64,000 nt of DNA, from assembly GCA_023269085.1 (NCBI GenBank), contig JAHFML010000001.1, positions 190,356 to 254,355 on the forward strand, given 5' to 3'. The notes below the pieces were generated by a model. The model saw only the letters and a list, made by a program, of their open reading frames with translations. It did no database searches and was not told the origin of the DNA. Below, in pieces: positions 25,235-59,393 of this stretch. The stretch is from a bacterium (GTDB lineage: Bacteria; Patescibacteriota; Minisyncoccia; Phycocordibacterales; Phycocordibacteraceae). Within the stretch, counting starts at the first letter, position 1. Every line of letters begins with the position of its first letter. A program made the position numbers and the translations under genes.

Positions 25235-25253
25235 GGAGATTGCTAAAACTAAT

Positions 25254-29115: not shown

Positions 29116-29984
29116 TGTGCTCGTTGCGGGACTCGTATCGGTGATGGTACGGCGCCCTGCGCAAAAGAAACTTCTTTATATTTTTCAAAGCGCTTCTTCA
29201 TTACCTCAATCGCTTCAGGGTTGCTGTCCACGAGGACAAACTCTCGCCCAAGCTCAAGCGCGGCTTCACCGAAGGTTCCGCTCCCGGCAAAAAAATCCAT
29301 GACCGTATCTCCCTCCTGCGAGGACGCGAGAACAATACGACGAATAATACCAAGTGGTTTTTGCGTCGGGTATCCGGTCTTTTCTTTTCCATTCGGACTC
29401 ACGATAGTGTGCCACCACGTGTCGGTCGGTGTCTTACCGAGCGCGGCTTTTTCAGGACCGACGAGCCCGGGTGCCATGTAGGGGATGCGATCGATCTCAT
29501 CATAATTGAAAATGTAATTCTCCGCGTCCTTCGCGTACCAGAATATCGAGTCGTGCTTCGCTGGCCATTTGTTTTTGCTCCGAGCGCCATAGTCATACGC
29601 CCAGATTATTTCATTCAAGAAATTCCCACGACCAAAGATGGTGTCGAGCAGAATTTTGCAGTAGTGCGCTTCGCGATAATCGATATGAAAATATATGCTG
29701 CCGTCTGCTGTCAAAATACGATGCGCTTCGTGTAATCGGGGTTCAAGAAATCCTAGGTAATCGTCAAATGCATCGTGATACGATTTTTCTCCAAGCACGG
29801 TCGTTCGATAGGTGTTTCCTTTAAATCCTATTCGGTCTCCTTGTTCATCGCGCGTTGTCTTGAGCTGTTTGCGAGATTGGACTTTGCCAGTATTAAACGG
29901 CGGATCGATATAGATAAGCGAAACCGATTCTGATGGCATCATGCGCAATGCCTCAAGATTATCGGCAAAAATGACCTTGTTCAT
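29100..29984 (-). CDS. DNA methyltransferase, beta-class (N6-adenine or N4-cytosine)
   Basis: N-terminal DPPF motif IV (LIYIDPPFNTG), C-terminal FxGxG motif I (FFAGSGTFGEAA). Confidence 0.85.
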   Translation of the reverse strand: MNKVIFADNLEALRMMPSESVSLIYIDPPFNTGKVQSRKQLKTTRDEQGDRIGFKGNTYRTTVLGEKSYHDAFDDYLGFLEPRLHEAHRILTADGSIYFHIDYREAHYCKILLDTIFGRGNFLNEIIWAYDYGARSKNKWPAKHDSIFWYAKDAENYIFNYDEIDRIPYMAPGLVGPEKAALGKTPTDTWWHTIVSPNGKEKTGYPTQKPLGIIRRIVLASSQEGDTVMDFFAGSGTFGEAALELGREFVLVDSNPEAIEVMKKRFEKYKEVSFAQGAVPSPIRVPQRAQCQLL

Positions 29985-30684: not shown

Positions 30685-33600
30685 CTACGCCCGAACAAGT
30701 TTGAATTGCACCGGACCAGTGGAGAGCGTCACGCTGTGAGGGCCCTCGCCTTGCACGACTTCGACCGCGTCGCCGGGCGCGAGCCCTTCGGCCTTGCGCG
30801 CCTGCGCAATCGCGCTCGCCATCTCGCGCTCGTCGCCTTCTCGAATAAGCTCAGGCGTGAGCGTCGTGTCGAGGGCGAGCTCATTGCCCACCAAAATCTC
30901 TTTCACATTCACTTCATCAGCGAGAACAGCCGAAAGCTCGCTCGTGAGCGGTTCAAAAATCGTGAGACTCGCGAGTGGCTGACGCACTTTGATGCCGGCC
31001 TTCTGTCGCAATTGTAATGCTTCTGACGCAAAGGCGCGCACGCGCGCCATGTCGGCGATCAGTGAGCTTACTTTGTCCGAAGAGTCGAGCGTGCCCCGCG
31101 AAGCCGCATCGGCGAAGTGGGACCAGTCGCACAGATGCACGCTCTCCGGCTCGCTTTCTTCTCGCACCGCGCGATACACTTCTTCGGCAATAAAGGGCAT
31201 CGCGGGCGCCATCACTTTCGACAGCTCTGCGAGCACGTGGCGCATCGTCGCGAGTGCATCCCGTTTGTCACCTCCTTCTTCTTTAAACCGATCGCGCGAG
31301 CGACGTACATACCACGCTGACAAATCATCGATGAAGAGCGCGAGCGGGCGCACCGCACGATCGAGCTCGTAGCTCTCATACCCTTCGGTCGATTCTTTCA
31401 GGAGCTCGGCGAGCCGCGCAAGAATCCATCGATCCAAGATATTCGTACTCGTCGCAGCACTCGGCGTGCCGTCGACATAGAGCTGATAAAAAGCGAGCAC
31501 ATTCATGAGCCGGCCGATGTTCTTCTTCGCGACCTCGTCGACGCCCTTCTCGGCGAAGGCGAGATTCTCTGCCTGCACGACTGGCGATACGAGGAGATAA
31601 TAGCGCAACGCATCCGCACCATACTTCTCGACGATGAGCAGGGGGTCGGGATAATTTTTCTTGCTCTTCGACAACTTCTTCCCATCTTCAGAAGAGACGA
31701 CGATGCCATTGACGATGACCTGCTCGAACGCCGGTTTGTTGAACAGGGCTCCGGCGAAGACGTGCAAATAATAGAACCATGCGCGGGTCTGATCGACGCC
31801 CTCGGCGATAAATTGTGCAGGGAACGTCTTCTCAAATTGTTCCTTGTTCTCAAACGGATAATGCCCTTGCGCATACGGCATCGCGCCCGAGTCGAACCAC
31901 GTGTCGAGCACGTCGCTCACGCGCGTGAGCGGCTCGCCCGCATCATTCACAAGCTGCACCTCGTCAATATACGGCAGATGCAGGTCGAGCTCATAGTCGC
32001 CGTTGTGCGGGAGTGGTGTGAAGTCGAGTGGATAGGGTGTCGCATATTCAATCGGATTGAACGCGTGCCGATATTCTTTCGTCTTTCCTGAAGCGATAAG
32101 CCGGAGTGATCTCACTGGATTCTTGTGCGAGACAATGAGGATGCGCGTATTCGTATACTGCTTCTCTAAATCGTAGAGCGCCGCACCAACCCTATGACGC
32201 ACTTGTTCTCCCGTTTCGCCGCCCTCTGGTGCAAGAGAGAATCGGTCGCTTGTCCCAGAAAAAAACATACTGTATTCGGCAATTGGCTTGCCGTCGAATA
32301 TACCTGCGCTTTTCTCGAAGAATCGCTCGTCGGTAATAATTGCGCTTCTTGCGAGACCGAGCTCATCCGCGACAATCTCTGCTGTCTCTTTCGTGCGTAA
32401 CAACGGCGAAGTGATTATGATATCGACACCGCCTGCTGTTACAAGCGTTTGTGCTCCTGCCTTTGCCTGCGCACGTCCAACTTCTGTAAGAGGATGCTTC
32501 ATTGCCGTCTTGGCCGTTGTGCTCATTACGTCTTCGACATTTGCAAGCGACTCGCCATGCCGCATCACAAAATACGTGTTGCCGCTTTTCTTCGTGTGCT
32601 TCTTCAACTCATCGACCGAGCCAATGACGGTGATCTCCCCCGCCGCATCCTTCCACAGAGGCATCACACTCGCCCAGAAGCGCTGGCGCGATATCGACCA
32701 GTCGCGCGCGCCTTCGAGCCACTTGCCGAAGCGACCCTCTTTAATATGCGCGGGCGACCACGCGATGCTCTCCGCATTCTTGAGCAAATCATCCTTCACC
32801 TTCGTCACTGCGACGAACCACGAAGTCGTCGCATAATTCAGAAGCGGCGTGTCGCAACGCCAGCAATGCGGATAGCTGTGCACAAGATTCTCCTTCGAGA
32901 AGAAGGTGCCATGTTCTTGCAGATATTTGATAACCTCAATGTCCGTGCCGAGCCGCACTTTGTCATCGTCGGACTTCGGCTTCACCTCCCTCCCCGCGAA
33001 GTCGGTCACCTCGCTCTTCATCGTGCCGTCTCCCTGCACATGCTGAATGAACGGGAGATTCTCTTTTTTGCCAAGCGCCATGTCGTCTTCGCCGAAGGCC
33101 GGTGCGATGTGCACGACACCCGTGCCCGTGTCGGTCGTGACGAAGTCGGCGGCGTAGACCTTCCAGCCGTTCTCGCGGTTCTTGAGCGTCGCGTCATTCT
33201 TATAATAATCAAACGGTGGTTCGTATTCGAGGCCGACGAGATCGCGGCCAACGAGGAGCCGCACCGGCCGCGAAGAAATAGTCTGGCCGAGCGGAGCGAG
33301 GAGATCCGAGGACTTTTCTGCAGTGGCCGGTGCGGCGACGATGTGGGTTTGTCCATCAACCTCGCGCACTTCGTATTCAATATTCTCCCCCACCGCGAGC
33401 GCGACGTTGCCGGGCAGTGTCCACGGCGTCGTCGTCCACGCGAGGAGATAGACCTCACCCGAGAGACCGAGCTTCTCTGGATTTTTTATTTTAAATTTCA
33501 CCGTGACCGAAATATCTTTGACATCCTTGTATCCCTCCGCGACCTCCTGTTGGGAGAGCGTTGTCTCACAGCGCGGGCAGATATGCATCGAGCGATAGTC

Positions 33601-34119
33601 CTCATAGACAAGCCCTTTGTCATAGACCTGCTTGAAGACCCACCAGACCGACTCCATGAAGGACGGGCTCATCGTCAAATAGGCGTGCTCCATATCGACC
33701 CAGCGCCCGATGCGCGGGATAATCTTCTTCCATTCGTCCGCATATTCAAACACGCTCGACCGACAGCGCTCATTGAACTTCTCCACGCCGTACGCCTTGA
33801 TATCCTTTTTATGTTTGAAGCCGAGCTCCTTCTCTATCATGTTCTCGATCGGGAGACCGTGCGTGTCCCAGCCCCACACCCGCGGGACATGATAGCCGCG
33901 CATCGTGAAGTAGCGCGGGACAGCGTCCTTGATAACGCTCGCGACAATGTGGCCATAGTGCGGCAGGCCGGTCGCGAAGGGCGGGCCATCGTAGAAAACA
34001 TATTCGCCCTTGGGCGCTTCCTTCGCGAGCGACTGCTCAAAAACCTTCTCGCGTTCCCAGAATGCGAGCGTCGCCTCCTCCCGCACGGCTGTTTCTGATT
34101 TTTCTGGCATAGACTCCAT
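30685..34119 (-). CDS. ileS: isoleucyl-tRNA synthetase (type 2) with embedded histidine-phosphatase (PGAM-like) domain
   Basis: start at MESMPEKSE; HYGH and KLSKS motifs; editing domain; ~195-aa insert with RHG and SH motifs (see findings). Confidence 0.9.
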   Translation of the reverse strand: MESMPEKSETAVREEATLAFWEREKVFEQSLAKEAPKGEYVFYDGPPFATGLPHYGHIVASVIKDAVPRYFTMRGYHVPRVWGWDTHGLPIENMIEKELGFKHKKDIKAYGVEKFNERCRSSVFEYADEWKKIIPRIGRWVDMEHAYLTMSPSFMESVWWVFKQVYDKGLVYEDYRSMHICPRCETTLSQQEVAEGYKDVKDISVTVKFKIKNPEKLGLSGEVYLLAWTTTPWTLPGNVALAVGENIEYEVREVDGQTHIVAAPATAEKSSDLLAPLGQTISSRPVRLLVGRDLVGLEYEPPFDYYKNDATLKNRENGWKVYAADFVTTDTGTGVVHIAPAFGEDDMALGKKENLPFIQHVQGDGTMKSEVTDFAGREVKPKSDDDKVRLGTDIEVIKYLQEHGTFFSKENLVHSYPHCWRCDTPLLNYATTSWFVAVTKVKDDLLKNAESIAWSPAHIKEGRFGKWLEGARDWSISRQRFWASVMPLWKDAAGEITVIGSVDELKKHTKKSGNTYFVMRHGESLANVEDVMSTTAKTAMKHPLTEVGRAQAKAGAQTLVTAGGVDIIITSPLLRTKETAEIVADELGLARSAIITDERFFEKSAGIFDGKPIAEYSMFFSGTSDRFSLAPEGGETGEQVRHRVGAALYDLEKQYTNTRILIVSHKNPVRSLRLIASGKTKEYRHAFNPIEYATPYPLDFTPLPHNGDYELDLHLPYIDEVQLVNDAGEPLTRVSDVLDTWFDSGAMPYAQGHYPFENKEQFEKTFPAQFIAEGVDQTRAWFYYLHVFAGALFNKPAFEQVIVNGIVVSSEDGKKLSKSKKNYPDPLLIVEKYGADALRYYLLVSPVVQAENLAFAEKGVDEVAKKNIGRLMNVLAFYQLYVDGTPSAATSTNILDRWILARLAELLKESTEGYESYELDRAVRPLALFIDDLSAWYVRRSRDRFKEEGGDKRDALATMRHVLAELSKVMAPAMPFIAEEVYRAVREESEPESVHLCDWSHFADAASRGTLDSSDKVSSLIADMARVRAFASEALQLRQKAGIKVRQPLASLTIFEPLTSELSAVLADEVNVKEILVGNELALDTTLTPELIREGDEREMASAIAQARKAEGLAPGDAVEVVQGEGPHSVTLSTGPVQFKLVRA

Positions 34120-34120
34120 A

Positions 34121-35788
34121 TTACATCCTCTCGGGTGCGCTGACGCCGAGGAGCGTGAGGCCATTCGTCATCGTGGTGGCGAAGGCGCGCGCGACGCGCT
34201 GTTTGTACGCCTCTTCGGGGCTCCCGAGCACTTGTTCGGATGCATAAAAAGAATTCCACGTGGCGGCAAGCGCGGTGAGGTAGGTGGTGAGAATATTCGG
34301 CGCGAGCTCCCGCGCGGCGCGCGCGACTACTTCAGGATAATGCAGGATGAGCCGCTCGATAGCATAGGGCTCGGATGGTTCTTCAATCCCGCCTTCTCCA
34401 TTCTCAGCATACGCGAGGATCTTCTTCGCCCGCACAAGCGCATACTGGAGATACGGCCCCGAATCGCCCTCGAGCGAGAGCGACTGCTCGGGGTCGAAGA
34501 TAATGTCCGAGCCCGGCGCTTGGCGCAGGATCATATATTTGATAGCACCAATAGCGACTTGCTCGGCCACATGCGGGTCCGGGTTCTTCACGAGCGCCTT
34601 GCCGATGATCTCGGTAATCAGGGCATCGGCCGTGATAACATTCCCCTCGCGCGAGCTCATCTTGCCCGAGGTGAGGCGCAAGAAGCCGTGCGGCACGTGC
34701 CGGGTCTTGGCCGCTATCGCCGGCGCGAGCTCGGCGAGCGCCGCGAGCACCACCTTGAAGTGTCCGATCTGCTCGGCTGCCGTCACGATAATCGAACGAT
34801 CATTCGGGACTCGCTCCTCTTTCAAAAAAGCGAGCCCGATGTCCTTGGCCTCATAGGTCGGCGTACCGCGACTTGTAACAAAAACGAGCGTGTGGAGCCC
34901 AACCTTCTCACCACGATAAATCACGGCGCCTTCGCTCTCTTCAAAAATTCCCTTTGCAATACCGTCATGCACCATGCGCGTACCTGGCTCGGCAGTCTCG
35001 CTCTCAAAAAAATACTGATCGAAATGTGTGCCGAGATGCTGATATATCTTCTCAAATGCTTCGAGTGATACAGCGCGCCCCTTCCGCCACAGATCCATGA
35101 CTGCCGTGTCGCTCGCCGTATAAATAACCGTGTTCAACGCATCGATTTCTGCCTTCGCTTCAGGCGAATCTTCATAGGCTTGGTTACCCGCAACATACGC
35201 CTCGCTCAATTCAAGCGTCGTGGTTGGTTCAACGATGCCGACTTTTTGCAATCCCCACAACGCCTTCGCGACATGCGGCCCGACATCGCCCTGATAATTT
35301 GCACGGATGACCGTCGCGCCTTCGTTCTCGATAAGCCGCGAGATTGATTCGCCAATCGTATTGCTCATCAAATGCCCAATATGCATTGCTTTGAATGGGT
35401 TCGGGTCGGTATACTCGATCACGACGCGCTGGCCTTCTTGCACATTCCCCTTCCCCCATCCTGTGCCTTGCGCAGAAGCCTCGGTGATGGCGCGCGCGAC
35501 GGCCGCGCGCGAAAGCGTGATGTTGATGAAGCCCGGGCCCGCGACCTCGATACTCTGTATCGAGGTCGGGCCGAGCACCGTCGAGACCCTGAGTTCTTTG
35601 ACCAGAAGCTCGGCCACCTCTTGTGGTCGTTTGCCAAGTTGCTTCGCCGCCGCTAGGGCCGCATTCGTCGCGTAGTCGCCATGCGTCATCTCGGTCGGCT
35701 GTTCGACGACAAAGGCGCCTGTCTGCCCGGCAGGCAGGCCAAGCTCCCGCAGGGCGCCAGCAACCGCTTCTCGAATCTTCTCTTCCAT
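34121..35788 (-). CDS. argS: arginyl-tRNA synthetase
   Basis: 555 aa; class I core with HVGH-type motif; C-terminal DALR anticodon-binding domain. Confidence 0.93.
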   Translation of the reverse strand: MEEKIREAVAGALRELGLPAGQTGAFVVEQPTEMTHGDYATNAALAAAKQLGKRPQEVAELLVKELRVSTVLGPTSIQSIEVAGPGFINITLSRAAVARAITEASAQGTGWGKGNVQEGQRVVIEYTDPNPFKAMHIGHLMSNTIGESISRLIENEGATVIRANYQGDVGPHVAKALWGLQKVGIVEPTTTLELSEAYVAGNQAYEDSPEAKAEIDALNTVIYTASDTAVMDLWRKGRAVSLEAFEKIYQHLGTHFDQYFFESETAEPGTRMVHDGIAKGIFEESEGAVIYRGEKVGLHTLVFVTSRGTPTYEAKDIGLAFLKEERVPNDRSIIVTAAEQIGHFKVVLAALAELAPAIAAKTRHVPHGFLRLTSGKMSSREGNVITADALITEIIGKALVKNPDPHVAEQVAIGAIKYMILRQAPGSDIIFDPEQSLSLEGDSGPYLQYALVRAKKILAYAENGEGGIEEPSEPYAIERLILHYPEVVARAARELAPNILTTYLTALAATWNSFYASEQVLGSPEEAYKQRVARAFATTMTNGLTLLGVSAPERM

Positions 35789-46152: not shown

Positions 46153-46159
46153 AAGACTT

Positions 46160-46637
46160 GATTATGCTCATACTTTGCTGAACTTTCAAATATTTCCTCT
46201 TCAGCAACGGTATGCCTTTTCTATAATACAGGTAATTACACAAAATGACCGCTTCTCTCTTGGCGAACCGAAGTTGAACATACGTCGTGCCGGCATACCG
46301 AGTTATATGACCTTTTACATGAACCATGTCACTTATTCGCTTTCGCAACCAATCGATGAAGGGCGGACTCGCCGATAAGAAACTCGCGAAATAAGACATC
46401 GCCAAACTGAATGCGATGGTAAAGGTTCCCTGTTCCAGAATGTTTAATCCCAATCTTTGTTTTGATACCGAAACATTTCTTGAAAGTTACGACTTGTTCA
46501 AGATCTTTTGAAGTGAAATCAATATGTCTGCCGTCATTCAACAGACAGCCATCTGCCGTTAATAATCCGATTGCGTACGCAAATTTTGGTGACCATTCGA
46601 TCTTTACTGCCCCTTTTGGCTTTGGTCCCCTCTTCAT
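46160..46637 (-). pseudogene. frameshifted LAGLIDADG homing-endonuclease remnant in an AT-rich insert
   Basis: ORF 46329..46637 carries a LAGLIDADG-like block FAYAIGLLTADGCL; a second half continues in another frame (ORF 46109..46453, ...YVQLRFAKREAVILCNYLYYRKGIPLLKRKYL); local GC ~40%. Confidence 0.6.
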
Positions 46638-46733
46638 TGCCTTTATTATAAACTGACCTATATAGCGTATACCAATTTATCCACTATGCCAGAAAAAACG
46701 GCCTGCCGCGAGGCAGACCGAATTGGCTTCCAA

Positions 46734-47663
46734 TTACTTCAAATCATCGAGGTACGTCTTGAGCGCAAACGCTCGCCACGAACCCGACTCGACCCCGCGC
46801 AAGACGAAACGACTCACCTCGATTCTGAACTCCTCTTGCCTCCCCTGTTTGATCAACAGGGCGAGCTTTCGGATATCCTTCTTCTTCGGGTTGTTGGCCC
46901 CTTTCGCAAGAAAGCCGATCAACTCCTCATAAAGATGACGATCGTTCAGCAGAATGGTGGCAAGCTTCTCGAGCCTGACGATGCACTTCAAATACGCTGA
47001 CCGATAATCAGCCAGCCGCACCAGCAAGCTCGCGACAAGGCGCACCACGCCTCGTTCGCTTACCACCTCATTTTCAAGCATGAACTGAATCGCTTCCGCG
47101 CTTCCCGCGAGACCAATGTCGACATGCGGTTCGAGACATTTCGACTTGAGGAATTCGCTTGAGATATGTTCTATCCCCCGCTCCCAAGCCTTAATTTCTC
47201 GTGCCACCGCTTCATACGGGAGGCTTGCCATGCCGACAATCTCATCGCCACCGTATCTCCCGAAGGAAACACAGGGAGCCTGGTCGGTCGTAGCACCAAT
47301 ACTGCTCAAGAGAGCATCACCGGCTTCGTGTGAAGCGTTGTTCACCAGACTCAAGAACGACACATCCCCGAACACGATCCAGAGGTCATTCTCGGCGCCG
47401 ATTGACTCACGCCCTTCGGACAACCGGTTATTCTCAATCTCCTCCGGCAAAAGAATACCCTTGACCTTTTCATTCAGGAACTGGAACCATTGCCCCCGAG
47501 TGAACAAACCGGTAACCATGTCGACACCGGCGTGCACCAATTCGTCTCGGGCGGACCGGAGCTCTGATTGCAATCCGACATTGTTCCTCTGTATCTCCTT
47601 ATGGAGTTTCGGGTATCGTCTGTCGAAGTCGGCTTTCAATATGTCTTGGCACTTCATGCACAC
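46734..47663 (-). CDS. GGDEF-domain protein (diguanylate-cyclase-like) with C-terminal domain of unknown function
   Basis: 309 aa; GGDEF-type motif RYGGDEI; lower-GC DNA. Confidence 0.6.
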   Translation of the reverse strand: MCMKCQDILKADFDRRYPKLHKEIQRNNVGLQSELRSARDELVHAGVDMVTGLFTRGQWFQFLNEKVKGILLPEEIENNRLSEGRESIGAENDLWIVFGDVSFLSLVNNASHEAGDALLSSIGATTDQAPCVSFGRYGGDEIVGMASLPYEAVAREIKAWERGIEHISSEFLKSKCLEPHVDIGLAGSAEAIQFMLENEVVSERGVVRLVASLLVRLADYRSAYLKCIVRLEKLATILLNDRHLYEELIGFLAKGANNPKKKDIRKLALLIKQGRQEEFRIEVSRFVLRGVESGSWRAFALKTYLDDLK

Positions 47664-48033
47664 TCTCCTTATGCAAGTTGGGCTCCGCGTATGCGGAGCC
47701 CGGGTTGAAGTTCATGCGGCGTCCTTTTTGAAAGGCCGCCCCCAGACCTCGTCGGGGTCAATCAGCGACGATGATGGCAGTGCTGCAAACGCGGCACTGC
47801 GATGCGCTTCTTCTTCGCGCGCATCGACTGCTACGATGCCGAGCGCAACGTTCTGGCGAGCAAGCCCGCGAAGTGACCCATCAGGGTCCCACTTGTTGAA
47901 AAAATCTTTCAGGCTCTCTCGAGCCAAGAGATTGTTTTTCATACCATGCTCCTTGGTTGGTTACGGGAACAACTTCCAGTTAAAAGTATACCAAAATACC
48001 AAAAATAATCAACTATCCCAAATTTCTGTCTGT

Positions 48034-48108
48034 TGGTGCCCCCGCGAGGAGTCGGACCTCGAATAGCGGCTTAGAAGTCCGCAGTTATATCCGTTTAACT
48101 ACAGGGGC
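48034..48108 (-). tRNA. tRNA-Arg (TCT)
   Basis: 75 nt incl. CCA; acceptor GCCCCTG/CGGGGGC; D-loop AACGGATA with A20; anticodon loop CTTCTAA; imperfect 31-39 pair. Confidence 0.7.
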
Positions 48109-51878: not shown

Positions 51879-52352
51879 ATGGCTACGAACAGCATCGCCG
51901 AGTGGGAAGGAAAAGAATACGAGCACAACCCAAAGAGCGCCGACTGGTATTGGGTGCTCGGCATCGTTGCCGTCGCGGGCGCAACCGCTTCTCTCCTCTT
52001 CGGGAATTACCTTCTCACTGTTCTCATCATCATCGCGACAGCCGCCATCGCGCTTCACGCCGCGAAGGTTCCCTCTCTCCATCAGTTCCGTCTCGTCGAG
52101 CAGGGTCTGCTGATCGGCGACGTTCTCCACCCCTTCGAGCAGATGGAATCATTCACCGTGCTCGAAGATATCGAGGGCGAGCTCCCGCCGCTCCTCTCGA
52201 TAAAGACTGAGAATTGGCACTCCCCGCACCTCGTGATCCCGCTCGAGGGCGTCGACGCCGACATGGTCTACGCCTACTTCCTCCATCATGTCGACGAGAG
52301 CGAACATCACCACACCTTCTCTGACCTAGTGGCGGCGTGGCTCGGTTTCTGA
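51879..52352 (+). CDS. hypothetical membrane protein
   Basis: 157 aa; two TM helices; His-rich C-terminus. Confidence 0.35.
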   Translation: MATNSIAEWEGKEYEHNPKSADWYWVLGIVAVAGATASLLFGNYLLTVLIIIATAAIALHAAKVPSLHQFRLVEQGLLIGDVLHPFEQMESFTVLEDIEGELPPLLSIKTENWHSPHLVIPLEGVDADMVYAYFLHHVDESEHHHTFSDLVAAWLGF

Positions 52353-52367
52353 TATACCTACAGTATT

Positions 52368-52439
52368 GCTCTCGTCGTTCAACGGATAGGACACCAGCTT
52401 GCGGAGCTGGCAATCAAGGTTCGATTCCTTGCGAGAGCA
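52368..52439 (+). tRNA. tRNA-Arg (GCG)
   Basis: 72 nt, no CCA; shares 5' half GCTCTCGTCGTTCAACGGATAGGA and T-arm with tRNA-Arg(CCG) at 58150; anticodon loop TTGCGGA. Confidence 0.7.
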
Positions 52440-52735
52440 CAATAAAGCGAAGCGAATATTGTGCTCGAGAGCACGTCTGGGAGACGTGCGGCAAGGAATC
52501 GAAAACCTTGCGAGCATTTTATCGAGCTTTCTGAAGCGAAGAAAAAATCCGCAAGGTGTACGCTGAGATTTTAAAAGAGCGAAGCGACTATTAAAATCCA
52601 AGTGCAGTTTCGAAGAAAGCTGCCTGAACCTGTAAGGTTCGATAAGCGTACTCGCGGTCCTTGCAAGCGTACTTTTCATTCTGAACGATTTGCAGGAAGA
52701 CGTCTCGTAGTACTATAAATACTGAGAATTAACGT

Positions 52736-53290
52736 ATGTCTAAATCTACTAACCTTAAATACTACTATCTCGAACAATATCTTGAAACAGAGGTACGGCC
52801 TTATTTTGAAAAAGAACATCACCTTACATCCGAACAGTTTTTTGCGATTATCGAATGGAAGAATCCGAAGTTTGGAAAGACTAAACTCACACACCTCAAA
52901 CCAAAAGACATAGAAAAACTTTTTAAAACTATTTACGGCGAGTCTAGGGAAAAGCAACTGAAAATTCTAGTAGACATTAAAGGTCTAAAGCTAGCCACTG
53001 CTTCTGCAATCCTTACGATTCTATATCCAGAAAGGTTTACGGTTTATGATGTGCGTGTTCGAAAGCAATTAAGAAAGCGAGGTCTGTGGGAAGAAGAACC
53101 CGATGATATTACTTATTGTGTCGACGTGGTAAATAGATACTTTGATAAATATCTACCCCCGATAGAGAAACTGGCTACAGACAGCGGGCTATCACTTCGT
53201 GATTGCGATCGTGCCTTGTGGGCACAAGATTGGCATGAAGACCTGATGGACTTCATTATTGCAGGTTCGAGCGAAAACAACACGGTTTAA
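52736..53290 (+). CDS. hypothetical protein (possible HhH-like motif), low-GC
   Basis: 184 aa; IKGLKLATASAILTILYPERFTVYDVRV; ~40% GC. Confidence 0.3.
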   Translation: MSKSTNLKYYYLEQYLETEVRPYFEKEHHLTSEQFFAIIEWKNPKFGKTKLTHLKPKDIEKLFKTIYGESREKQLKILVDIKGLKLATASAILTILYPERFTVYDVRVRKQLRKRGLWEEEPDDITYCVDVVNRYFDKYLPPIEKLATDSGLSLRDCDRALWAQDWHEDLMDFIIAGSSENNTV

Positions 53291-53298
53291 AATAATAT

Positions 53299-53913
53299 AT
53301 GAACTACTTCAAACCGATCCTGTATAGCATCAGTGTCCTTCTACTGGTCGCGCTGGTGTCCATTCGGTATCAACACGCAACACAAAAGGTTGTTGTGCCG
53401 ACTGTCTCATCAGCAACCTCATCAAACGACGCACCCTCTGATATGAGTCCCAACTGTGCCGCCTATTACAACAACGCAGGGAACGGTACGGACCCAATTG
53501 ATACGGAGCTCGCCGACTTCACTAACTTACACCCACTTTCTGATTATCTCTGCGGATCATATTCAGATGTCCTGAAGACGACACTAGCTGACGGCAAGGT
53601 TCTCTATTTTGTAGATCCAATCGCTCAAGAATCGTGTGGTAGCGGCGGGTGTACATATTTCCCCATGATTGAGGAGAGGCCGGGCGCAATCCGCCGTATA
53701 CGCGGTTTTACGGGTGGTTCTGACGCAGGTGATGACTCAGTCTTTGGCTTCCTGTCTTTCCCAAAGAAAGGAGTGGTGGAGGTGTACTGGCACGAGTCGG
53801 CAACATGCGGCACGACGAACACTTACGGATTCACTGCTACCGATACTCCTTATCTAATCTCCACATCTGACAGCTGCTCACAAGAAGGAGGCGTACAGCC
53901 TCAAAGAAAATAG
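53299..53913 (+). CDS. secreted/membrane-anchored Cys-rich hypothetical protein
   Basis: 204 aa; N-terminal hydrophobic segment; 8+ Cys. Confidence 0.35.
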   Translation: MNYFKPILYSISVLLLVALVSIRYQHATQKVVVPTVSSATSSNDAPSDMSPNCAAYYNNAGNGTDPIDTELADFTNLHPLSDYLCGSYSDVLKTTLADGKVLYFVDPIAQESCGSGGCTYFPMIEERPGAIRRIRGFTGGSDAGDDSVFGFLSFPKKGVVEVYWHESATCGTTNTYGFTATDTPYLISTSDSCSQEGGVQPQRK

Positions 53914-53930
53914 GTGCTCGTATTTATCTC

Positions 53931-54002
53931 GCCTCCGTAAGCTAACGGATAAACTACCTCGCTTCTATCGAGGCCTTGGGGGTTCGAATCCTCTCGGAGG
54001 CA
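53931..54002 (+). tRNA. tRNA-Arg (TCT), second copy, island-associated
   Basis: 72 nt; acceptor GCCTCCG/CGGAGGC; D-loop AACGGATA; anticodon stem CCTCG/CGAGG, loop CTTCTAT; T-loop TTCGAAT. Confidence 0.65.
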
Positions 54003-54015
54003 CTGATGGTAAATC

Positions 54016-54154
54016 CTCGCCGCGATTTCGTTTCCCGCTTCGGCCGAATCAATCGACCATGCCGTAGCGGGCAACCCCGAGGCCATCATGGCGCAGGTCG
54101 GCGCCATGCACCTTACGCCGCTTTCCGATCAGGATGCGGCGCAGGTGCGAGGTG
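54016..54154 (+). repeat. leader-module repeat copy 1 (5'-truncated; starts 14 nt after the tRNA)
   Basis: 139 bp nearly identical to the 3' part of copies 2 and 3. Confidence 0.8.
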
Positions 54155-54393
54155 AGGGAATCTCTGTAGCCGTATTGATTGTCAACCTCAAGTGGCTTTA
54201 CAAAGTTTCCGCACCTTTCAGGCAATTCATGAGTGGCTACAGAGCGAGTCAGATATTTGGTTGGGAATGGGGCAGAGCGTTATCAATTGCCCAAGGCAAT
54301 CCAGATCCTGGGCAATTGTCTAGCCATTCGCTAGAAGCTACATTCATTTACTGGCTTGGTAATAACTGGACATATCAACTCTTTTACAAATAG
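54088..54393 (+). CDS. cassette 1: truncated secreted-peptide precursor (conserved leader remnant + unique AT-rich C-terminal part)
   Basis: MAQVGAMHLTPLSDQDAAQVRG then divergent 80 aa; in-frame upstream TAA removes the signal peptide, so possibly a pseudogene. Confidence 0.4.
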   Translation: MAQVGAMHLTPLSDQDAAQVRGEGISVAVLIVNLKWLYKVSAPFRQFMSGYRASQIFGWEWGRALSIAQGNPDPGQLSSHSLEATFIYWLGNNWTYQLFYK

Positions 54394-54495
54394 CACACAT
54401 GAAATATATGCGTGGCGCTCTGTAGAAACTGATGAGTCCAAAGAGGGTCTACAGACCCTCTTTTTATTTGTCATGATTGTGGTAGATTCCCTTAT

Positions 54496-54840
54496 ATGAA
54501 GAAACTACTAAACAAAATCCTGTTTGCACAATATCTCTTCGCGCCAGAGATTATTCCTTTATTGGCGATTCTTTACTTCTTCGCCATGGTCTTTTCGGTG
54601 CACTTTGTGTTGTCTCTTTTTGTAGAAATAAACACGACTATCTTGATTTGGGTCTTCGTTATTGCCATGGTGGTGTTTGCCGTAACATTTCTTCCCGTAA
54701 TGATGCGGTTTGCGAGTGGTTGGCCATCGGGAAAAGAGGAGGAAAATTTGATTGATAAGTCCAGTCCAAGTGATCGTATTATTTATACTCTACTGTTTCT
54801 CGCTTCTATCTTCGTATTTTATTATATCTATGTGAAATAA
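54496..54840 (+). CDS. small polytopic membrane protein (immunity-protein-like), AT-rich
   Basis: 114 aa; 3 TM helices; directly downstream of cassette 1. Confidence 0.35.
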   Translation: MKKLLNKILFAQYLFAPEIIPLLAILYFFAMVFSVHFVLSLFVEINTTILIWVFVIAMVVFAVTFLPVMMRFASGWPSGKEEENLIDKSSPSDRIIYTLLFLASIFVFYYIYVK

Positions 54841-54920
54841 GAAGCTGACGTGTTTGGGGTGAACAGATACGCAACCAAATGGCGTATGGTATGTTGAGAA
54901 GTGGACATAGTTCTTTTCCC

Positions 54921-55143
54921 GAAGAACATCCTGTCCGTTCCCTTCAAACTCTCAAGGAGTCTGCAATGCGTACAGCATTCACTGCAGTACTCGCGGCGAT
55001 ATCCCTCGCCGCGATTTCGTTTCCCGCTTCGGCCGAACCGATCGACCATGCCGTAGCGGGCAACCCCGAGGCCATCATGGCGCAGGTCGGCGCCATGCAC
55101 CTTACGCCGCTTTCCGATCAGGATGCGGCGCAGGTGCGAGGTG
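54921..55143 (+). repeat. leader-module repeat copy 2 (5' UTR + RBS + signal peptide + conserved leader)
   Basis: ~223 bp, ~98% identical to copy 3. Confidence 0.85.
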
Positions 55144-55331
55144 CAGCATGGATGATTCCTGGTTGGATGTACGCCATCGTTTCTAAATTTCTGAGTGCAG
55201 GACATCTGGTAAGCTCATTCGGCGCCAGTTACCTGAATCAGATGGCGGCCGAGTATGGCTGGAAAATAAACGGCATCCCAGTACGGTTCTCTCTCATGGA
55301 TGCAATCTTCGTAGCTCCACCTGCACGTTAA
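54966..55331 (+). CDS. cassette 2: secreted peptide precursor (Sec signal + conserved LSDQDAAQVRG leader + unique Trp/Tyr-rich C-terminal peptide)
   Basis: AAGGAG RBS; MRTAFTAVLAAISLAAISFPASA signal with AxA site; conserved 36-aa leader; unique 62-aa tail. Confidence 0.55.
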   Translation: MRTAFTAVLAAISLAAISFPASAEPIDHAVAGNPEAIMAQVGAMHLTPLSDQDAAQVRGAAWMIPGWMYAIVSKFLSAGHLVSSFGASYLNQMAAEYGWKINGIPVRFSLMDAIFVAPPAR

Positions 55332-55394
55332 ACAATACTCAAAGTACGGTTTGATGTGTATAACCGGACGCCCCCAATTGGGGGCGTTTTTATA

Positions 55395-56150
55395 TCATAG
55401 ACTTGTGATTAAGTTCCCAATAATGTCTGATTTTCGTATCGGTCCGAACGAGCGTGAGTCGGTGCTTGAAGCGCGATTATCACCAAGCACAAAATATTCA
55501 TCGGGACCGAGCGTGGTGACAGAATCCGGTGTTGTGCTCCCGAGTGAATAGGGTTCATTTAATGATAATCCGTTTGCGGACACTACTCCACCACGAATAT
55601 CGATACGCTCGCCAGGTAATCCGATAACTCGCTTAATGATAAATGCTGGTGCCGATACATCTTGTTCACGCGATACAACCACCTCTCCTCGCAGGAAATT
55701 GTGCGGGATTTCATTTACAATGAGGTACGCTCCGTTTTGATACGTTGGTATCATGGAGTCCCCACTCATCACAAATGGCGAAACGATAAACATCCTAATC
55801 ATCAGTGCCAAGGGCACTACTATTGCAATAGTTATACTGATTGATGCAAGATAGGCACTTGTTGCACGTAGAAAAGATACGGGGAATCTCCTCTTGAGGA
55901 GCCACGTGCAGATACCGATTGATACGATCGCGTCGAATACGAGCGGGATTGGCAATGCGACGATGCGCACCATTTCTCCCGCAAGTCCGCCCGCGATATT
56001 TGCCACGAGCACAGTGATAACGGCATACCCAAATGTCGGACGAGGGAATGCAAACCTTCTTTCGACCCACAGGAGAACAGCGGAGCTAAGTGTGAGAGAC
56101 AGAACGGCAACTACTGTCATAACAATGATGAGCACTGTTGAGATATTCAT
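55395..56150 (-). CDS. lepB: signal peptidase I (S26) with unusual ~120-aa, 4-TM N-terminal extension
   Basis: catalytic SGDSMIPT and GDNRASSTDSRSFG motifs; start taken at MNISTV. Confidence 0.8.
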   Translation of the reverse strand: MNISTVLIIVMTVVAVLSLTLSSAVLLWVERRFAFPRPTFGYAVITVLVANIAGGLAGEMVRIVALPIPLVFDAIVSIGICTWLLKRRFPVSFLRATSAYLASISITIAIVVPLALMIRMFIVSPFVMSGDSMIPTYQNGAYLIVNEIPHNFLRGEVVVSREQDVSAPAFIIKRVIGLPGERIDIRGGVVSANGLSLNEPYSLGSTTPDSVTTLGPDEYFVLGDNRASSTDSRSFGPIRKSDIIGNLITSL

Positions 56151-56207
56151 ATCTACTAAGAATACCACGTGTGGTGTTCGGTGATATTCGATTATTTCGA
56201 GTTAAGA

Positions 56208-56431
56208 AGAAGAACATCCTGTCCGTTCCCTTCAAACTCTCAAGGAGTCTGCAATGCGTAAAACATTCACGGCAGTACTCGCGGCGATATCCCTCGCCGC
56301 GATTTCGTTTCCCGCTTCGGCCGAACCAATCGACCATGCCGTAGCGGGCAACCCCGAGGCCATCATGGCGCAGGTCGGCGCCATGCACCTTACGCCGCTT
56401 TCCGATCAGGATGCGGCGCAGGTGCGAGGTG
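56208..56431 (+). repeat. leader-module repeat copy 3
   Basis: ~224 bp. Confidence 0.85.
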
Positions 56432-56595
56432 AGTTCTTGCCCGCTGCGATTATCCCAATGTTGAATTACATTTACTACTTGGGGGTGATGTATGGAATAC
56501 CTACCGCAGTTAATTACGCAGCGGAGATCGGCAGTAGCCCTTGGATTGCAAAGCAATATGTGAAGGACCAAGTCAAGAAGTATTTTGGCTGGTAA
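56254..56595 (+). CDS. cassette 3: secreted peptide precursor (same signal + leader, different C-terminal peptide ending KYFGW)
   Basis: MRKTFTAVLAAISLAAISFPASAEPIDHAVAGNPEAIMAQVGAMHLTPLSDQDAAQVRGE then a unique hydrophobic/aromatic 55 aa. Confidence 0.55.
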   Translation: MRKTFTAVLAAISLAAISFPASAEPIDHAVAGNPEAIMAQVGAMHLTPLSDQDAAQVRGEFLPAAIIPMLNYIYYLGVMYGIPTAVNYAAEIGSSPWIAKQYVKDQVKKYFGW

Positions 56596-56694
56596 GCAAT
56601 TCGATGAGTACTGAATAACTTCGGCATCAACAAAAAGTGCCATGCTGGATCAGCATGGCACTTTACTATATAAATCTGATACAATTTCACTATC

Positions 56695-57081
56695 ATGATC
56701 TTCTGGAAGATATTTGCTTGGACAAATGCAATTATAAATGTTCCGTTCGTTATAGCGGCTCTTTTCGTCACGCCAGTGTTCCACGCCCTCGATGTCGCCG
56801 TATGGTTATTCAACGACTTTCCATTACTGGCTGTCCCTTTCTTGTTTGCGTACAAAGTACACGGAAAGAGATATATTCCTGCACTCGGTGTTTTAAAAGC
56901 TATTTTTGTTTTCTCTATAACTTATAACACCATTCACACCATCTCCGATTTCAAAGTATACCACTTCACTAGTATGCCCGGATTCCTGTTCGATTTGTCT
57001 TTTTATATCCTCATCATTCTGTCATTAATTTCTTTTTTGTTCTACATAAAAATGGAACGCGGCCTACAAGCGCATCATTAG
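56695..57081 (+). CDS. small polytopic membrane protein (immunity-protein-like), AT-rich
   Basis: 128 aa; 4 TM helices; directly downstream of cassette 3. Confidence 0.35.
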   Translation: MIFWKIFAWTNAIINVPFVIAALFVTPVFHALDVAVWLFNDFPLLAVPFLFAYKVHGKRYIPALGVLKAIFVFSITYNTIHTISDFKVYHFTSMPGFLFDLSFYILIILSLISFLFYIKMERGLQAHH

Positions 57082-57433
57082 CGCAGATCATATTCCACTT
57101 CCAGCGGCAGAGTTCCATCGTGGTAGATTCACTATATATGAAAGACTGCAAAAAGACAGGAACAACCATATGATGCATACTATATGAAGGGAGATCTCTA
57201 ATATATGGAAATCACTTTTTTCTCTGCGCTTAAACTTATAGGAATTGTTCTCGGGCTTGTGGCCATTTTTGCGAGTTTTGCTTTCCCTCTATTTTCAAGC
57301 ACTCAATTTGATGACATGCCAATCTGGATAAAAATCCTCGTTCCCATGATTATTACGGCGATTTCATTTTGGGTTATACGATAATCCGCAAACGAATATT
57401 TTAAAAATATCCTGGATACCGTATTGTTATCGC

Positions 57434-57631
57434 ATGCAAAAAATACTGTTCGATATTCTTATTTTGATTGGTGTCGGTATTGGCATTTTGTCGATTACTG
57501 CCCAAATAGCCCATAGTCTGTTCTCGGGCGTATCTTTCGATTCTTTGTCATGGAAAGTCAAAATGGCCATGGCAGTTGTGGTGGCACTCATTTTCTCAAT
57601 TTTTGAATGGTACACGTATACTCTCCTGTAA
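57434..57631 (+). CDS. small 2-TM membrane peptide, AT-rich
   Basis: 65 aa; a second 59-aa membrane peptide ORF lies at ~57206-57385 (MEITFFSALKLIGIVLGLVAIFASF...). Confidence 0.25.
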   Translation: MQKILFDILILIGVGIGILSITAQIAHSLFSGVSFDSLSWKVKMAMAVVVALIFSIFEWYTYTLL

Positions 57632-57698
57632 CAAGACCTAATTACGGATACTAAGAAGTCCCGCGATTGGTAGTCGCGGGACTGTGGCGCATCGATAT

Positions 57699-58061
57699 TC
57701 ATGTTTCTCCTCCCGCTGAACAGACAACCCAAACGTCCCACGGCAAAATGTCTTTGTCGTTGATGCCCGACAACACGGCATTGGCGCCCTGACGAATGGC
57801 GTCCGGTACGAGGAAATGCTCGTGCGTGAGCATCTCGAGCGGGCAAGCGACCCGCACGATCTTGGTCGGTCGGCCGTAGGTGTCATAGGTGACCACCCGC
57901 GGACGTTCGTCCCAAAGGGACTGGAAGATGGAAATGGTCGGGGTGGGTTGAAGACTCACCTTCTGCAGATACGGATTCCCTCCCGGGTCGCCGCGTGCGA
58001 GAGGTATGAGGCCAAGTGCCGCAATAAGTGCGGCGAGTGCGATAAAGAGCTTGCGGTTCAT
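57699..58061 (-). CDS. secreted hypothetical protein
   Basis: start at MNRKLFIALAALIAALGLIPLARG (signal peptide); GC-rich. Confidence 0.35.
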   Translation of the reverse strand: MNRKLFIALAALIAALGLIPLARGDPGGNPYLQKVSLQPTPTISIFQSLWDERPRVVTYDTYGRPTKIVRVACPLEMLTHEHFLVPDAIRQGANAVLSGINDKDILPWDVWVVCSAGGET

Positions 58062-58149
58062 CGTGCCCTCCTTGTGGGTGATGAAGCAGGACATCCTGCA
58101 CCACCAAGTGTATACCTAATTTCAAAACTTGCTGTATGGTGAGTGCACA

Positions 58150-58224
58150 GCTCTCGTCGTTCAACGGATAGGATAGCCCCCTCCGAAGGGGCCGATGACG
58201 GTTCGATTCCGTCCGAGAGCACCA
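58150..58224 (+). tRNA. tRNA-Arg (CCG)
   Basis: 75 nt incl. CCA; anticodon stem GCCCC/GGGGC, loop CTCCGAA; 5' half identical to tRNA-Arg(GCG). Confidence 0.8.
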
Positions 58225-58271: not shown

Positions 58272-59393
58272 CTAGGCGCCCTTCCCTACCGCTTCGGAGA
58301 TATTCTTGAAGCCGTCGCGGGCGAGGAGGCGGGTGAGGCCGAGATTGATAGCCGCGACAACCTGCGGCCCTTCGTAGATGAGGCCAGACACCATCTGCAC
58401 GAGCGAGGCGCCGAGACGAATTTTGGTATACGCATCTTCGGCGGTGAAGACGCCCCCACAGCCGATGATGACGAGTTGTTTGCCATAGTTCTTATACGCG
58501 AGCGCGATGAGCTCGTTCGAACGCTTCTCGGTCGGCTTGCCGCTGAAGTTGCCCTTCGACGCATTTTTTATTTCTTCCGGATCAAACGACGGATCTTTGC
58601 GATTCTTCTGTAAGTTGCCGAAGATGACGCCAACGACCGGATGCTTCGCGACGATAGCGAGAAGCGCGAGCGCCTCAGCGTCGGTACGGTCGATCGGCAT
58701 CTTGATGAAGAGCGGCTTGCCGAGCTTCTCTGCGGTCACGGCGCGCAAGAGCGCGTCGAAGCTCTCGGGCGTATAAAAGCTAATCGGCGTGTGCAGATTC
58801 GGACAGCTGATGTTGAGCTCATAATAGCTGAACGGCACTTTCGACTGTTCTGCGGCGGTGAAAGCGGCGACAATGTCGGCGATGGCCGCCTCCTGCGTCG
58901 CGAGCTCTGCGGTGTTCGTCACACCGATACTGATGCCGACCGGATTCGTGAAGGGCTCTGCGCCGAGGTGTCCGAGCGTCGCGCTGACGCCCAGATTCTT
59001 GAAGCCTTTGTTGACGAGGAGCGAGCGCGATTTGATAAGCCTACCAAGGCGCGGCCGCTCGTTCCCTGCGTAGGGCTGGTTCGAGAGCGTGCCGACGGTG
59101 CTAAAGCCAAAGCCGACCGCGGGCAAGACTCGCGCTATCTTCGCCTCATAATCAAAGCCAGCCGCAAGGCCGATAGGATTATCAAAATGAATGCCCGCGA
59201 TCTCTTGTACGAGCGATGTGTCTTGTATGAGAAATATCTTCTTGCCGAGCCACACGAGCGGTGGCACGTGGCCGATGAGCCGGCCGAGCGAGGTGATGCT
59301 GTCGTGAACGTCTTCAGCATCGAAGCAGAAGAAGATCGGCTTCGCGACGCGCCGATAGAAGAATGAAGAGAGTGCGATAAAAGATTCACGCAT
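58272..59393 (-). CDS. pyrD: dihydroorotate dehydrogenase (quinone), class 2
   Basis: 373 aa; NPIGLAAGFD, GFGFSTVGT, PRLGRL, CGGVFTAEDA motifs. Confidence 0.85.
   Translation of the reverse strand: MRESFIALSSFFYRRVAKPIFFCFDAEDVHDSITSLGRLIGHVPPLVWLGKKIFLIQDTSLVQEIAGIHFDNPIGLAAGFDYEAKIARVLPAVGFGFSTVGTLSNQPYAGNERPRLGRLIKSRSLLVNKGFKNLGVSATLGHLGAEPFTNPVGISIGVTNTAELATQEAAIADIVAAFTAAEQSKVPFSYYELNISCPNLHTPISFYTPESFDALLRAVTAEKLGKPLFIKMPIDRTDAEALALLAIVAKHPVVGVIFGNLQKNRKDPSFDPEEIKNASKGNFSGKPTEKRSNELIALAYKNYGKQLVIIGCGGVFTAEDAYTKIRLGASLVQMVSGLIYEGPQVVAAINLGLTRLLARDGFKNISEAVGKGA

Follow-up and report, generated by a model that had tools for sequence, protein, structure and literature searches.

The window analysed here is a stretch of 64,000 nucleotides (nt) of a metagenome contig (JAHFML010000001.1), and all positions given below refer to it. 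It contains ten tRNA genes according to ARAGORN; tRNA calls were made with ARAGORN and Rfam. Two of these genes, tRNA-Arg(GCG) (52368-52440, plus strand; ARAGORN, Rfam 60.4 bits) and tRNA-Arg(CCG) (58150-58224, plus strand; ARAGORN, Rfam), bound the region of interest and are separated by 5,709 nt. Both are native: the first is 100% identical in L082 and 92% identical in L087-L092, and the second is 100% identical in L158 and 98.6% identical in L114 (loci used for comparison are cited by L numbers and proteins by P numbers). The left syntenic anchor is the gene of a 157-amino-acid (aa) membrane protein (51879-52352, plus strand), which has 746 homologues and is 70-91% identical in many Kaiserbacteria/Paceibacterota contigs; the right anchor is tRNA-Arg(CCG). 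The DNA between the two tRNA genes consists of a decayed element that we call a tRNA-trailer (52461-52672, plus strand) and of an island without counterpart in relatives (52673-58127, the right limit being good to about 10 nt). The host is a Kaiserbacteria-like member of the Patescibacteria (candidate phyla radiation, CPR), and all matches of the flanking pyrD protein, with up to 64% identity, are in genomes of this group.

The contents that the first-pass annotation had listed for the region are present, namely a 184-aa open reading frame (ORF), a 204-aa protein with six cysteines, three peptide cassettes, an S26 signal peptidase and small proteins with two to four transmembrane (TM) segments. 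Its description of the region as low in GC content was also borne out: the GC content is 0.45-0.50 across 52-58 kb versus 0.54-0.63 elsewhere, with about 58% for the window. The k-mer analysis that it had suggested gave a GC-normalised tetranucleotide deviation of 0.28-0.33 in the island versus a window mean of 0.207 (standard deviation 0.045), and the island is one of the few outliers of the window in this usage. The mosaic is seen at third codon positions, where the GC content (GC3) is 0.70 ± 0.07 in host genes versus 0.36-0.58 in island genes. Within the island the exceptions are the leaders of the peptide cassettes (GC3 0.68) and a 131-aa gene at 57699-58094 (GC3 0.70), which are host-like.

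Comparison with relatives showed the conserved order PilM, tRNA-binding protein, RuvX, tRNA-Ser, 157-aa gene, tRNA-Arg(GCG), tRNA-Arg(CCG), rpsT and RuvA, in which the 157-aa gene is always directly 5' of tRNA-Arg(GCG). The gap between the two tRNA-Arg genes is 32 nt in L057 and 41 nt in L083, without content in either case, while it is 168-170 nt in L084-L086 and about 200 nt in L157 and L177, where it holds a trailer element alone. It increases to 820 nt in L090 (one gene), to 1083 nt in L092 (two genes) and to about 2.4 kb in L114 (a trailer and two secreted-protein genes). No tRNA-Arg(CCG) is located within 6 kb in L087 and L088, where the trailer is followed by unrelated surface-protein genes. 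The contig of the closest relative, L082, ends 25 nt after tRNA-Arg(GCG). The 5.4 kb to the right of 52672 are missing from every relative examined, the sequence of the relatives resuming only about 20-25 nt before tRNA-Arg(CCG), and none of the island proteins has a homologue in the syntenic loci. The synteny check proposed in the first-pass annotation thus favours insertion, since the two tRNA-Arg genes are adjacent in L057, L083, L084, L085, L086, L157 and L177 and are split by other cargo elsewhere. The region is a foreign insertion between an ancestrally adjacent tRNA-Arg pair, at a recurrent hotspot. Searches of phage and plasmid collections with the island DNA gave no match.

The sequences common to the two outer tRNA-Arg genes, which had first drawn attention to the region, were confirmed. 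The genes share 24 identical 5' nt (GCTCTCGTCGTTCAACGGATAGGA) as well as the T-loop and 3' sequence CGAGAGCAC, their 23-nt 3' ends agree at 21 of 23 positions, and TATACCTA is located upstream of both. However, 24-26 identical 5' nt are also common to this tandem pair in L084 and L092, which are free of the island; the shared 5' half is a clade-wide property of the pair and is therefore uninformative about the island, contrary to what had been supposed. A tRNA-Arg with the anticodon GCG is encoded across the clade (the window, L057, L082-L092, L114 and L157). Bacteria usually use a tRNA-Arg with the anticodon ACG, deaminated to ICG by TadA.

Absence from the relatives could also be explained if the region were ancestral and had been deleted from them, its low GC content resulting from hydrophobic proteins rich in Phe, Ile, Tyr and Lys. 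The host-like leaders and 131-aa gene would suit this explanation, and the direct repeats of the tRNA pair could mediate deletions. However, GC3 is depressed too, and not just the GC content of the first and second codon positions; the GC-normalised tetranucleotides are atypical, the island has a foreign tRNA-Arg(UCU), and the region is missing in at least eight relatives of several sublineages, several of which have different cargo at the spot. We give an ancestral origin hardly any credence. An assembly artefact, in which low-GC DNA of another population was joined at the tRNA-Arg ends or at the leader repeats of the cassettes, is in our view very improbable as well. The metagenome source of the contig, the 24-nt and 21/23-nt identities of the tRNA genes, the 220-nt leader repeats and the break of the L082 contig 25 nt after tRNA-Arg(GCG) are all compatible with it, but the left junction falls 232 nt beyond the tRNA, past a trailer of native type. 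Low-GC parts alternate with parts of host GC content (the leaders and the 131-aa gene), and only several mis-joins at once could have produced this pattern. The segment 55114-56238 (the tail of cassette 2, the S26 gene and the promoter of cassette 3) recurs without change in an independent Logan unitig, which breaks at the leader repeats, and a variant of cassette 3 was found with its 128-aa neighbour in a second sample.

Directly 3' of tRNA-Arg(GCG), the first-pass annotation had placed two apparent remnants of attachment (att) sites, a palindrome containing CGAGAGCAC and a degenerate copy of the tRNA 3' end. The sequences GTGCTCGAGAGCAC (52461-52474) and ATCGAAAACCTTGCGAGCA (52498-52516) were found where it had located them, but they proved to be parts of one 212-nt trailer element and not integration scars. 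This element was recognised by a covariance model (R1; 99.6 bits, E 2.7e-24) and is the sole copy in the window. Alignment showed that 52441-52672 (232 nt) is homologous to the whole inter-tRNA spacer of L084, L085 and L086, and the trailer is also homologous in L157 and L114. The trailer opens with a short linker, after which the acceptor 3' strand of the tRNA is repeated in inverted orientation; the hairpin H2 separates this from a second inverted copy, that of the T-stem 3' strand and T-loop (AATCGAA). Next come two further hairpins, P3 (long and variable) and P4 (short, with an NGUAAN loop), then the conserved string GATAAGCGTACTCGCGGT, which includes a GCG-UACU-CGC mini-hairpin (P5), and finally the last 14 nt of the tRNA in direct orientation. 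In the window, GATAAGCGTACTCGCGGT is at 52641-52658, and the tail is a degenerate direct copy of the tRNA 3' end, CCTTGCAAGCGTAC (52659-52672). Decay of this copy is evident from an insertion of 62-70 nt in P3 (about 52562-52623) and from the acceptor-like helix, which is broken on both strands with three non-canonical pairs. Since the trailer is also present in island-free relatives and after many other tRNA genes, the supposed scars are a resident element, whether or not an island is there. The first 232 nt after tRNA-Arg(GCG) are outside the foreign insert, and the trailer predates or is independent of the island.

A metagenome scan for GATAAGCGTACTCGCGGT yielded at least 120 loci, among which the string is mostly located 115-170 nt 3' of a same-strand tRNA, with about 18 different anticodons; in the matches listed, the 14-nt tail usually equals the 3' end of the adjacent tRNA itself. 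The trailer is about 130-150 nt long and multi-copy, is found 3' of tRNAs with about 20 different anticodons (L084-L088, L094-L213, L002, L029 and L076) and was in the present data confined to Patescibacteria-type contigs. According to the covariance model, seven independent copies are present in 1.17 Mb of pyrD-anchored CPR loci, an unbiased sample; those at loci scanned for tRNAs (all but L076) are each directly 3' of a same-strand tRNA and add Val-TAC, Leu-GAG and Ser-ACT to the series. Five helices were predicted by RNAalifold from 19 copies, with compensatory changes in 26 of 34 pairs. When 106 copies found with the covariance model were compared, 91.5% of the cells paired, versus 66% in shuffles and about 42% with slid partners, and double changes were found in 30 of the 34 pairs. 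The tRNA strand is only weakly favoured by the G-U versus A-C counts (86:49 when one invariant pair and H2 are set aside). This G-U excess and the covariation suggest a functional RNA on the tRNA strand.

Cores with about 95% identity are found behind tRNAs of different specificity, with arms fitted to each of them (L114 behind an Arg and L206 behind a Glu tRNA). A trailer may be present or absent at the same tRNA among close relatives, and tandem copies also occur. L083 represents an empty site, in that its sequence after the tRNA resumes after the tail of the L084 trailer. This evidence fits a mobile, non-autonomous element with target-templated arms. Inspection of tRNAs with G-U pairs favoured neither a sense-copy nor an antisense-copy origin of the 5' arms. 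Apart from the tRNAs, Rfam gave no match at E ≤ 1 for the window region and 15 trailer loci; the trailer is not called as a tRNA by ARAGORN or RF00005, only the acceptor and T stems being mimicked. Its motif had no match in 2.9 million viral contigs and the element had none in the searchable literature, and no protein family, recombinases included, is enriched within 4 kb of trailers. We tentatively propose that trailers form a previously undescribed family that would insert at the T-loop/3' end of many tRNA genes and regenerate the tRNA. They would carry antisense and sense copies of the last 14-22 nt of their target, so that their helices would be templated by the tRNA, and no protein gene; the trailers, or whatever recombination activity moves them, might make the tRNA 3' flank the main entry for accessory DNA in the CPR.

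Several known systems offer comparisons with the trailer, among them viral tRNA-like structures, non-autonomous elements of the miniature inverted-repeat (MITE) and palindrome-associated (PATE) types, TnpB omega RNA and IS110 bridge RNA. The last two are guide-bearing transposon RNAs. In common with these systems, it joins a conserved structured scaffold to a variable segment matching a nucleic-acid target, here the tRNA 3' end, and it is multi-copy, patchy among close relatives, sometimes in tandem and seen in filled and empty sites. Unlike these analogues, it has no associated protein gene, is not in Rfam and carries both inverted and direct copies of its target. Its acceptor-like helix also pairs the discriminator and C74, so that it is not an aminoacylatable mimic. 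Analogies with TnpB omega RNA, IS605/PATE elements, IS110 bridge RNA, retrons and integron attC sites were not adopted, as no partner protein is enriched within 4 kb. The trailer was not taken for a phage attP either, given the lack of matches in viral contigs and of an enriched recombinase nearby. A group I intron was rejected, the Rfam intron models being without match and the upstream tRNA being intact; the group I introns described in PMC13011429 are located in anticodon loops, unlike the trailer. At two of the trailer loci, L166 and L170, the trailer follows a tRNA to which ARAGORN assigned the anticodon TTA ("tRNA-Stop"); some CPR contigs may encode a tRNA for suppression or recoding.

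As the first-pass annotation had stated, no integrase is present in the window; scans with Pfam, NCBIfam and PHROG, which covered the island ORFs and essentially all ORFs of at least 150 aa, revealed no integrase, recombinase or transposase domain. Mismatch-tolerant and local-alignment searches found no copy of the tRNA end at the right edge of the island, their only matches being the two tRNAs and the trailer copy, so that att repeats do not bound the island. The situation is different in two relatives. The two cargo genes of L092 are followed by a 22-nt copy of the segment of tRNA-Arg(GCG) that extends from the T-loop to the 3' end, CAGTTCGATTCCTCTCGAGAGTAC, and the cargo of L114 is located between the trailer tail and another copy of this segment, GATTCTTGCCGAGGGCGCACC. 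These distal copies of 21-22 nt bear the signature of recombination in the tRNA T-loop, and they match the insertion signature of the trailer itself. Integration at T-loops is exemplified by mycobacteriophage Ms6, which uses those of tRNA-Ala (PMC1762012). By analogy with L092 and L114, DNA would enter this spot by recombination at the T-loop/3' end of tRNA-Arg(GCG), and a later rearrangement would have erased the distal tRNA-end copy and any recombinase from the window.

The same findings bear on a more classical explanation, an integrase-mediated tRNA island or prophage remnant in the 3' end of tRNA-Arg(GCG), with the CGAGAGCAC palindrome and the degenerate copy as att scars. Such an element would account for the position 3' of a tRNA gene, the foreign composition and the absence from relatives, the tRNA 3' end is duplicated in the canonical way around the cargo of L092 and L114, and the 184-aa ORF matches a phage protein family. 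We nevertheless consider it unlikely: what was taken for scars is a single structured element, present also in relatives without an island and behind about 20 other tRNA species, the distal edge has no tRNA-end copy, no integrase was found in the island or window, and there is no similarity to phage, plasmid or viral-contig collections. It was also conceivable that the landing site is not the tRNA but the tRNA-like tail of the trailer, trailers thereby creating secondary insertion sites. The cargo indeed starts within a few nt of the end of the trailer tail in the window and in L114, but these are two cases only; the T-stem 5' strand and the T-loop, the other half of a T-loop att core, are missing from the tail, and in L127 and L198 the cargo is between the tRNA and the trailer instead. 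This makes landing at the tail a decidedly improbable route.

The three peptide cassettes, which make up the main cargo of the island, are all on the plus strand. Cassette 2 (54921-55331; protein P0001) has a shared 5' region at 54921-54965, an ORF at 54966-55331 and a unique tail of 62 aa, and cassette 3 (56209-56595) has the shared 5' region, an ORF at 56254-56595 and a unique tail of 54 aa. Cassette 1 (54010-54393) is a 5'-truncated orphan, with a leader remnant up to 54150 followed by a unique 79-aa tail; its identity to the leader begins 7-10 nt after the tRNA-Arg(TCT) of the island, so that the promoter and about the first 14 codons are absent and about 142 nt of the segment are kept. 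Cassettes 2 and 3 share a segment of 223 nt that is 98-100% identical (142-223 nt across the cassettes), comprising the 5' region, a Sec-type signal peptide (...FPASA/EP) and a propeptide ending in LSDQDAAQVRG. The precursors are 113-121 aa long with a leader of 59 aa. Similarity ends abruptly after the RG codons, and the tails (79, 62 and 54 aa) are unrelated, aromatic-rich and lower in GC content.

No domain was matched by the cassette precursors, and PADLOC gave no match for six island proteins. The leader peptide has no relatives in Joint Genome Institute metagenome contigs, and a word-indexed search of 5.8 billion proteins returned only the protein itself and one variant; exact-protein look-ups of P0001 and of the 157-aa protein returned no record. 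An exhaustive HMMER search of 1.84 billion cluster representatives found 12 proteins at E 0.001, nine of which (P0244-P0252; 73-124 aa) have the same signal peptide and a "...PLSD..A..[IVM]RGE" propeptide followed by unrelated tails. Two of these nine are encoded in one metagenome-assembled genome. A protein of 3501 aa (P0243) contains 19 repeated stretches that match residues 86-116, in the tail of cassette 2. A 96%-identical variant of cassette 3 (P0002), located on a contig of another metagenome assembly, adjoins a 215-aa Peptidase_C39 protein and a 268-aa protein and not an S26 gene. The propeptide LSDQDAAQVRG[E/A] is similar to a double-glycine leader displaced by one residue, and it would fit the LSxxELxxIxGG register only if cleavage follows the residue after G.

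Small multi-TM genes follow cassettes 1 and 3, and the S26 gene, on the opposite strand, follows cassette 2. The gene after cassette 1 (54496-54840, plus strand) encodes a 114-aa protein with four TM segments by hydropathy and no family (GC3 0.45), a putative immunity partner of this cassette. Downstream of cassette 3 are genes for a 128-aa protein with three or four TM segments (56695-57081) and for two paralogous 2-TM proteins of 59 aa (57205-57384) and 65 aa (57434-57631), all on the plus strand and with GC3 values of 0.37-0.47. The S26 signal peptidase I (55395-56168, minus strand; PF10502 3e-33) has an N-terminal extension of about 110 aa with four TM segments. It is above the curated thresholds of PF10502 (115 bits, cutoff 22.9) and TIGR02227 (106 bits, cutoff 47), and the catalytic motifs SGDSM and KRVIGLPGE are present in its sequence. 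Its public record (P0123) is 241 aa long and starts 16 codons later, at 56120. The 4-TM extension is shared by only one S26 homologue (P0124, 59% identity), which is flanked by genes for 2-TM proteins of 58-61 aa. An S26 protein with this extension and 2-TM proteins of 58-65 aa with an SFDD.P.W.K motif are thus found together in two unrelated contigs (L214, 1-1324; window, 55395-57631), which suggests that the S26 and 2-TM genes are a conserved module.

In our reading, the cassette locus encodes bacteriocin-like or polymorphic peptides, putative immunity proteins and a peptidase dedicated to processing the peptides, the toxicity, the immunity and the cleavage sites being deduced. The products of its cassettes would be secreted toxin peptides, bacteriocin-like or polymorphic, with cognate immunity proteins in the membrane. 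New modules, each a tail with its immunity gene, would be swapped in by homologous recombination within the leader repeat of 140-220 nt, which would have left cassette 1 as an orphan. The locus resembles those of class II double-glycine bacteriocins in having small precursors whose leader is conserved and whose mature peptides are hypervariable, and in the small multi-TM genes downstream, and the pattern L-S-D-x-x-A-x-x-[IVM]-R-G-[E/A] would align with the class II pattern if cleaved one residue after G. A C39 peptidase is found beside the orthologous cassette on another contig. Unlike class II loci, the cassettes have a Sec-type signal, an S26 peptidase with a membrane extension takes the place of the C39/ABC exporter, no Pfam, NCBIfam or PADLOC family is matched by the cassettes, and the host belongs to the CPR. 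Polymorphic toxin arrays with orphan modules are known from CdiA-CT/CdiI and Rhs systems. The cassettes share with them a conserved N-terminal part, a sharp demarcation motif and unrelated C-terminal modules of lower GC content with a small downstream gene, and the truncated cassette 1 keeps only the recombination-competent repeat. However, their N-terminal part is a leader of 59 aa, their tails are hydrophobic/aromatic peptides of 54-79 aa and not enzymes, and no delivery machinery accompanies them.

Taken as a whole, the region is probably a strain-specific, integrase-less mosaic accessory island that was built stepwise at a hotspot between ancestrally adjacent tRNA-Arg genes and reshuffled via its leader repeats. 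Several observations weigh against this reading. The host-like composition of the leaders and of the 131-aa gene means that part of the island may be old or native. Neither a tRNA-end repeat nor a recombinase is present at or in the island, and the mechanism of entry is inferred from the relatives only. The island is distal to the trailer, and accretion with the newest DNA next to the tRNA makes it the older of the two, yet trailer-only relatives exist; under simple accretion, independent trailer insertions or loss of the island are needed. Either the island came first and the trailer second, the trailer-only relatives having arisen independently or by loss of the island, or the island was inserted beside the trailer tail. 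As for the peptides, the residue after RG (position -1) is E or A and not G, domain scans of the island and window found no C39 peptidase or ABC exporter, and the toxin and immunity roles come from architecture alone, with no family, PADLOC or structural match. Finally, in a metagenome assembly, the 220-nt repeats and the similar tRNA ends could lead to misordered segments.

The island shares with tRNA genomic islands its location 3' of a tRNA, its foreign composition, its variability between strains and its possession of a tRNA of its own, and the cargo of relatives is flanked, as in such islands, by a 21-22-nt duplicate of the segment from the T-loop to the 3' end. It differs from them in having no integrase or distal repeat, in starting 232 nt past the tRNA and in having no similarity to phage, plasmid or viral-contig collections. 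CIMEs are decayed cis-mobilisable islands that have kept their att sites and lost their recombination module. Cargo without integrase at a tRNA hotspot is common to both and L092 and L114 fit this description, but the island of the window lacks the defining att pair. Little is known of the mobile DNA of CPR bacteria, whose genomes are tiny, or of the ways in which they compete; the locus provides a clear, bounded case of gain of accessory DNA at a tRNA hotspot without a recognisable recombinase. An episymbiont could use the cargo peptides as weapons against other bacteria or against its host. The trailer is a more general by-product and the most interesting lead from the window: should it prove mobile or regulatory, the alternatives are a protein-less element that re-templates its arms on a new tRNA, and mimicry or sequestration of tRNA 3' ends.

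The left part of the island starts with the 184-aa orphan ORF (52736-53290, plus strand; GC3 0.36), which matches phrog_24538 at 8e-15 and no Pfam or NCBIfam family. It has weak tblastn matches to ORFs of haloarchaeal pleolipoviruses and to Deinococcus and Halobellus plasmids and none in viral contigs. For the HhH-like label of the first-pass annotation, its match to 8-oxoG glycosylase chains is the sole indication and is weak (E 0.5), and its single-sequence AlphaFold model is of low confidence (pLDDT, the predicted local distance difference test score, of 50). The next gene (53299-53913, plus strand) encodes the 204-aa protein, which has an N-terminal signal anchor and six cysteines and no family match. 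It is followed by the second, foreign tRNA-Arg(TCT) (53931-54003, plus strand; ARAGORN, Rfam 49.7 bits), to which no similar tRNA was found in 213 fetched loci; the native tRNA-Arg(TCT) (48034-48108, minus strand) is 90-96% identical to those of relatives. The share of AGA and AGG among Arg codons is 28% in island genes versus 8.5% in host genes, which gives the extra tRNA-Arg(UCU) a plausible role: it may compensate for the higher use of these codons in the island. At the other end of the island, the 131-aa gene (57699-58094, minus strand) encodes a secreted or lipoprotein-like protein with no family and no homologue in the loci of relatives.

Other differences from the relatives were observed around the tRNA-Arg pair. 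A duplicated promoter-like stretch with a tRNA 5' start (GCTCTCGTATG...) is located ahead of tRNA-Arg(CCG) in L092 (7600-7736), and a CGCGGTCCCGTCGGGCGCA stretch that resembles the end of another trailer is located ahead of the same gene in L114 (7937-7975). These extra fragments look like debris of repeated recombination events. The pyrD gene of the window (58272-59393, minus strand) sits between tRNA-Arg(CCG) and rpsT, and that of L057 (10001-11122) and L002 (10001-11110) between tRNA-Val(TAC) and tRNA-Arg(TCT). The corresponding ancestral slot in the window (46153-48033; GC content 0.46-0.54 at 46-48 kb) holds a 309-aa ORF (46734-47663) with no Pfam family. In relatives, the rpsT-RuvA interval is variable as well (L084, 11148-14366; L085, 10053-13271); it contains a gene with a reverse-transcriptase domain (RVT_1) and a nucleotidyltransferase/HepT toxin-antitoxin pair.

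Elsewhere in the window, a second low-GC patch (28546-29984; GC3 0.50-0.55) contains the gene of an N6/N4 DNA methylase (PF01555, 3e-49) next to a 189-aa ORF without family; the two are probably an acquired restriction-modification pair. A 239-aa ORF (24749-25468) matches BRO-N at 1.5e-5, barely above the Pfam cutoff; it overlaps the beginning of a class II aminoacyl-tRNA synthetase gene and may be a spurious frame. The gene at 30685-34164 encodes a 1159-aa isoleucyl-tRNA-synthetase-like protein that carries a histidine phosphatase domain (PF00300, 1e-28, residues 532-702) between its tRNA-synt_1 match (best stretch, residues 33-530) and its anticodon-binding domain (residues 911-1064).

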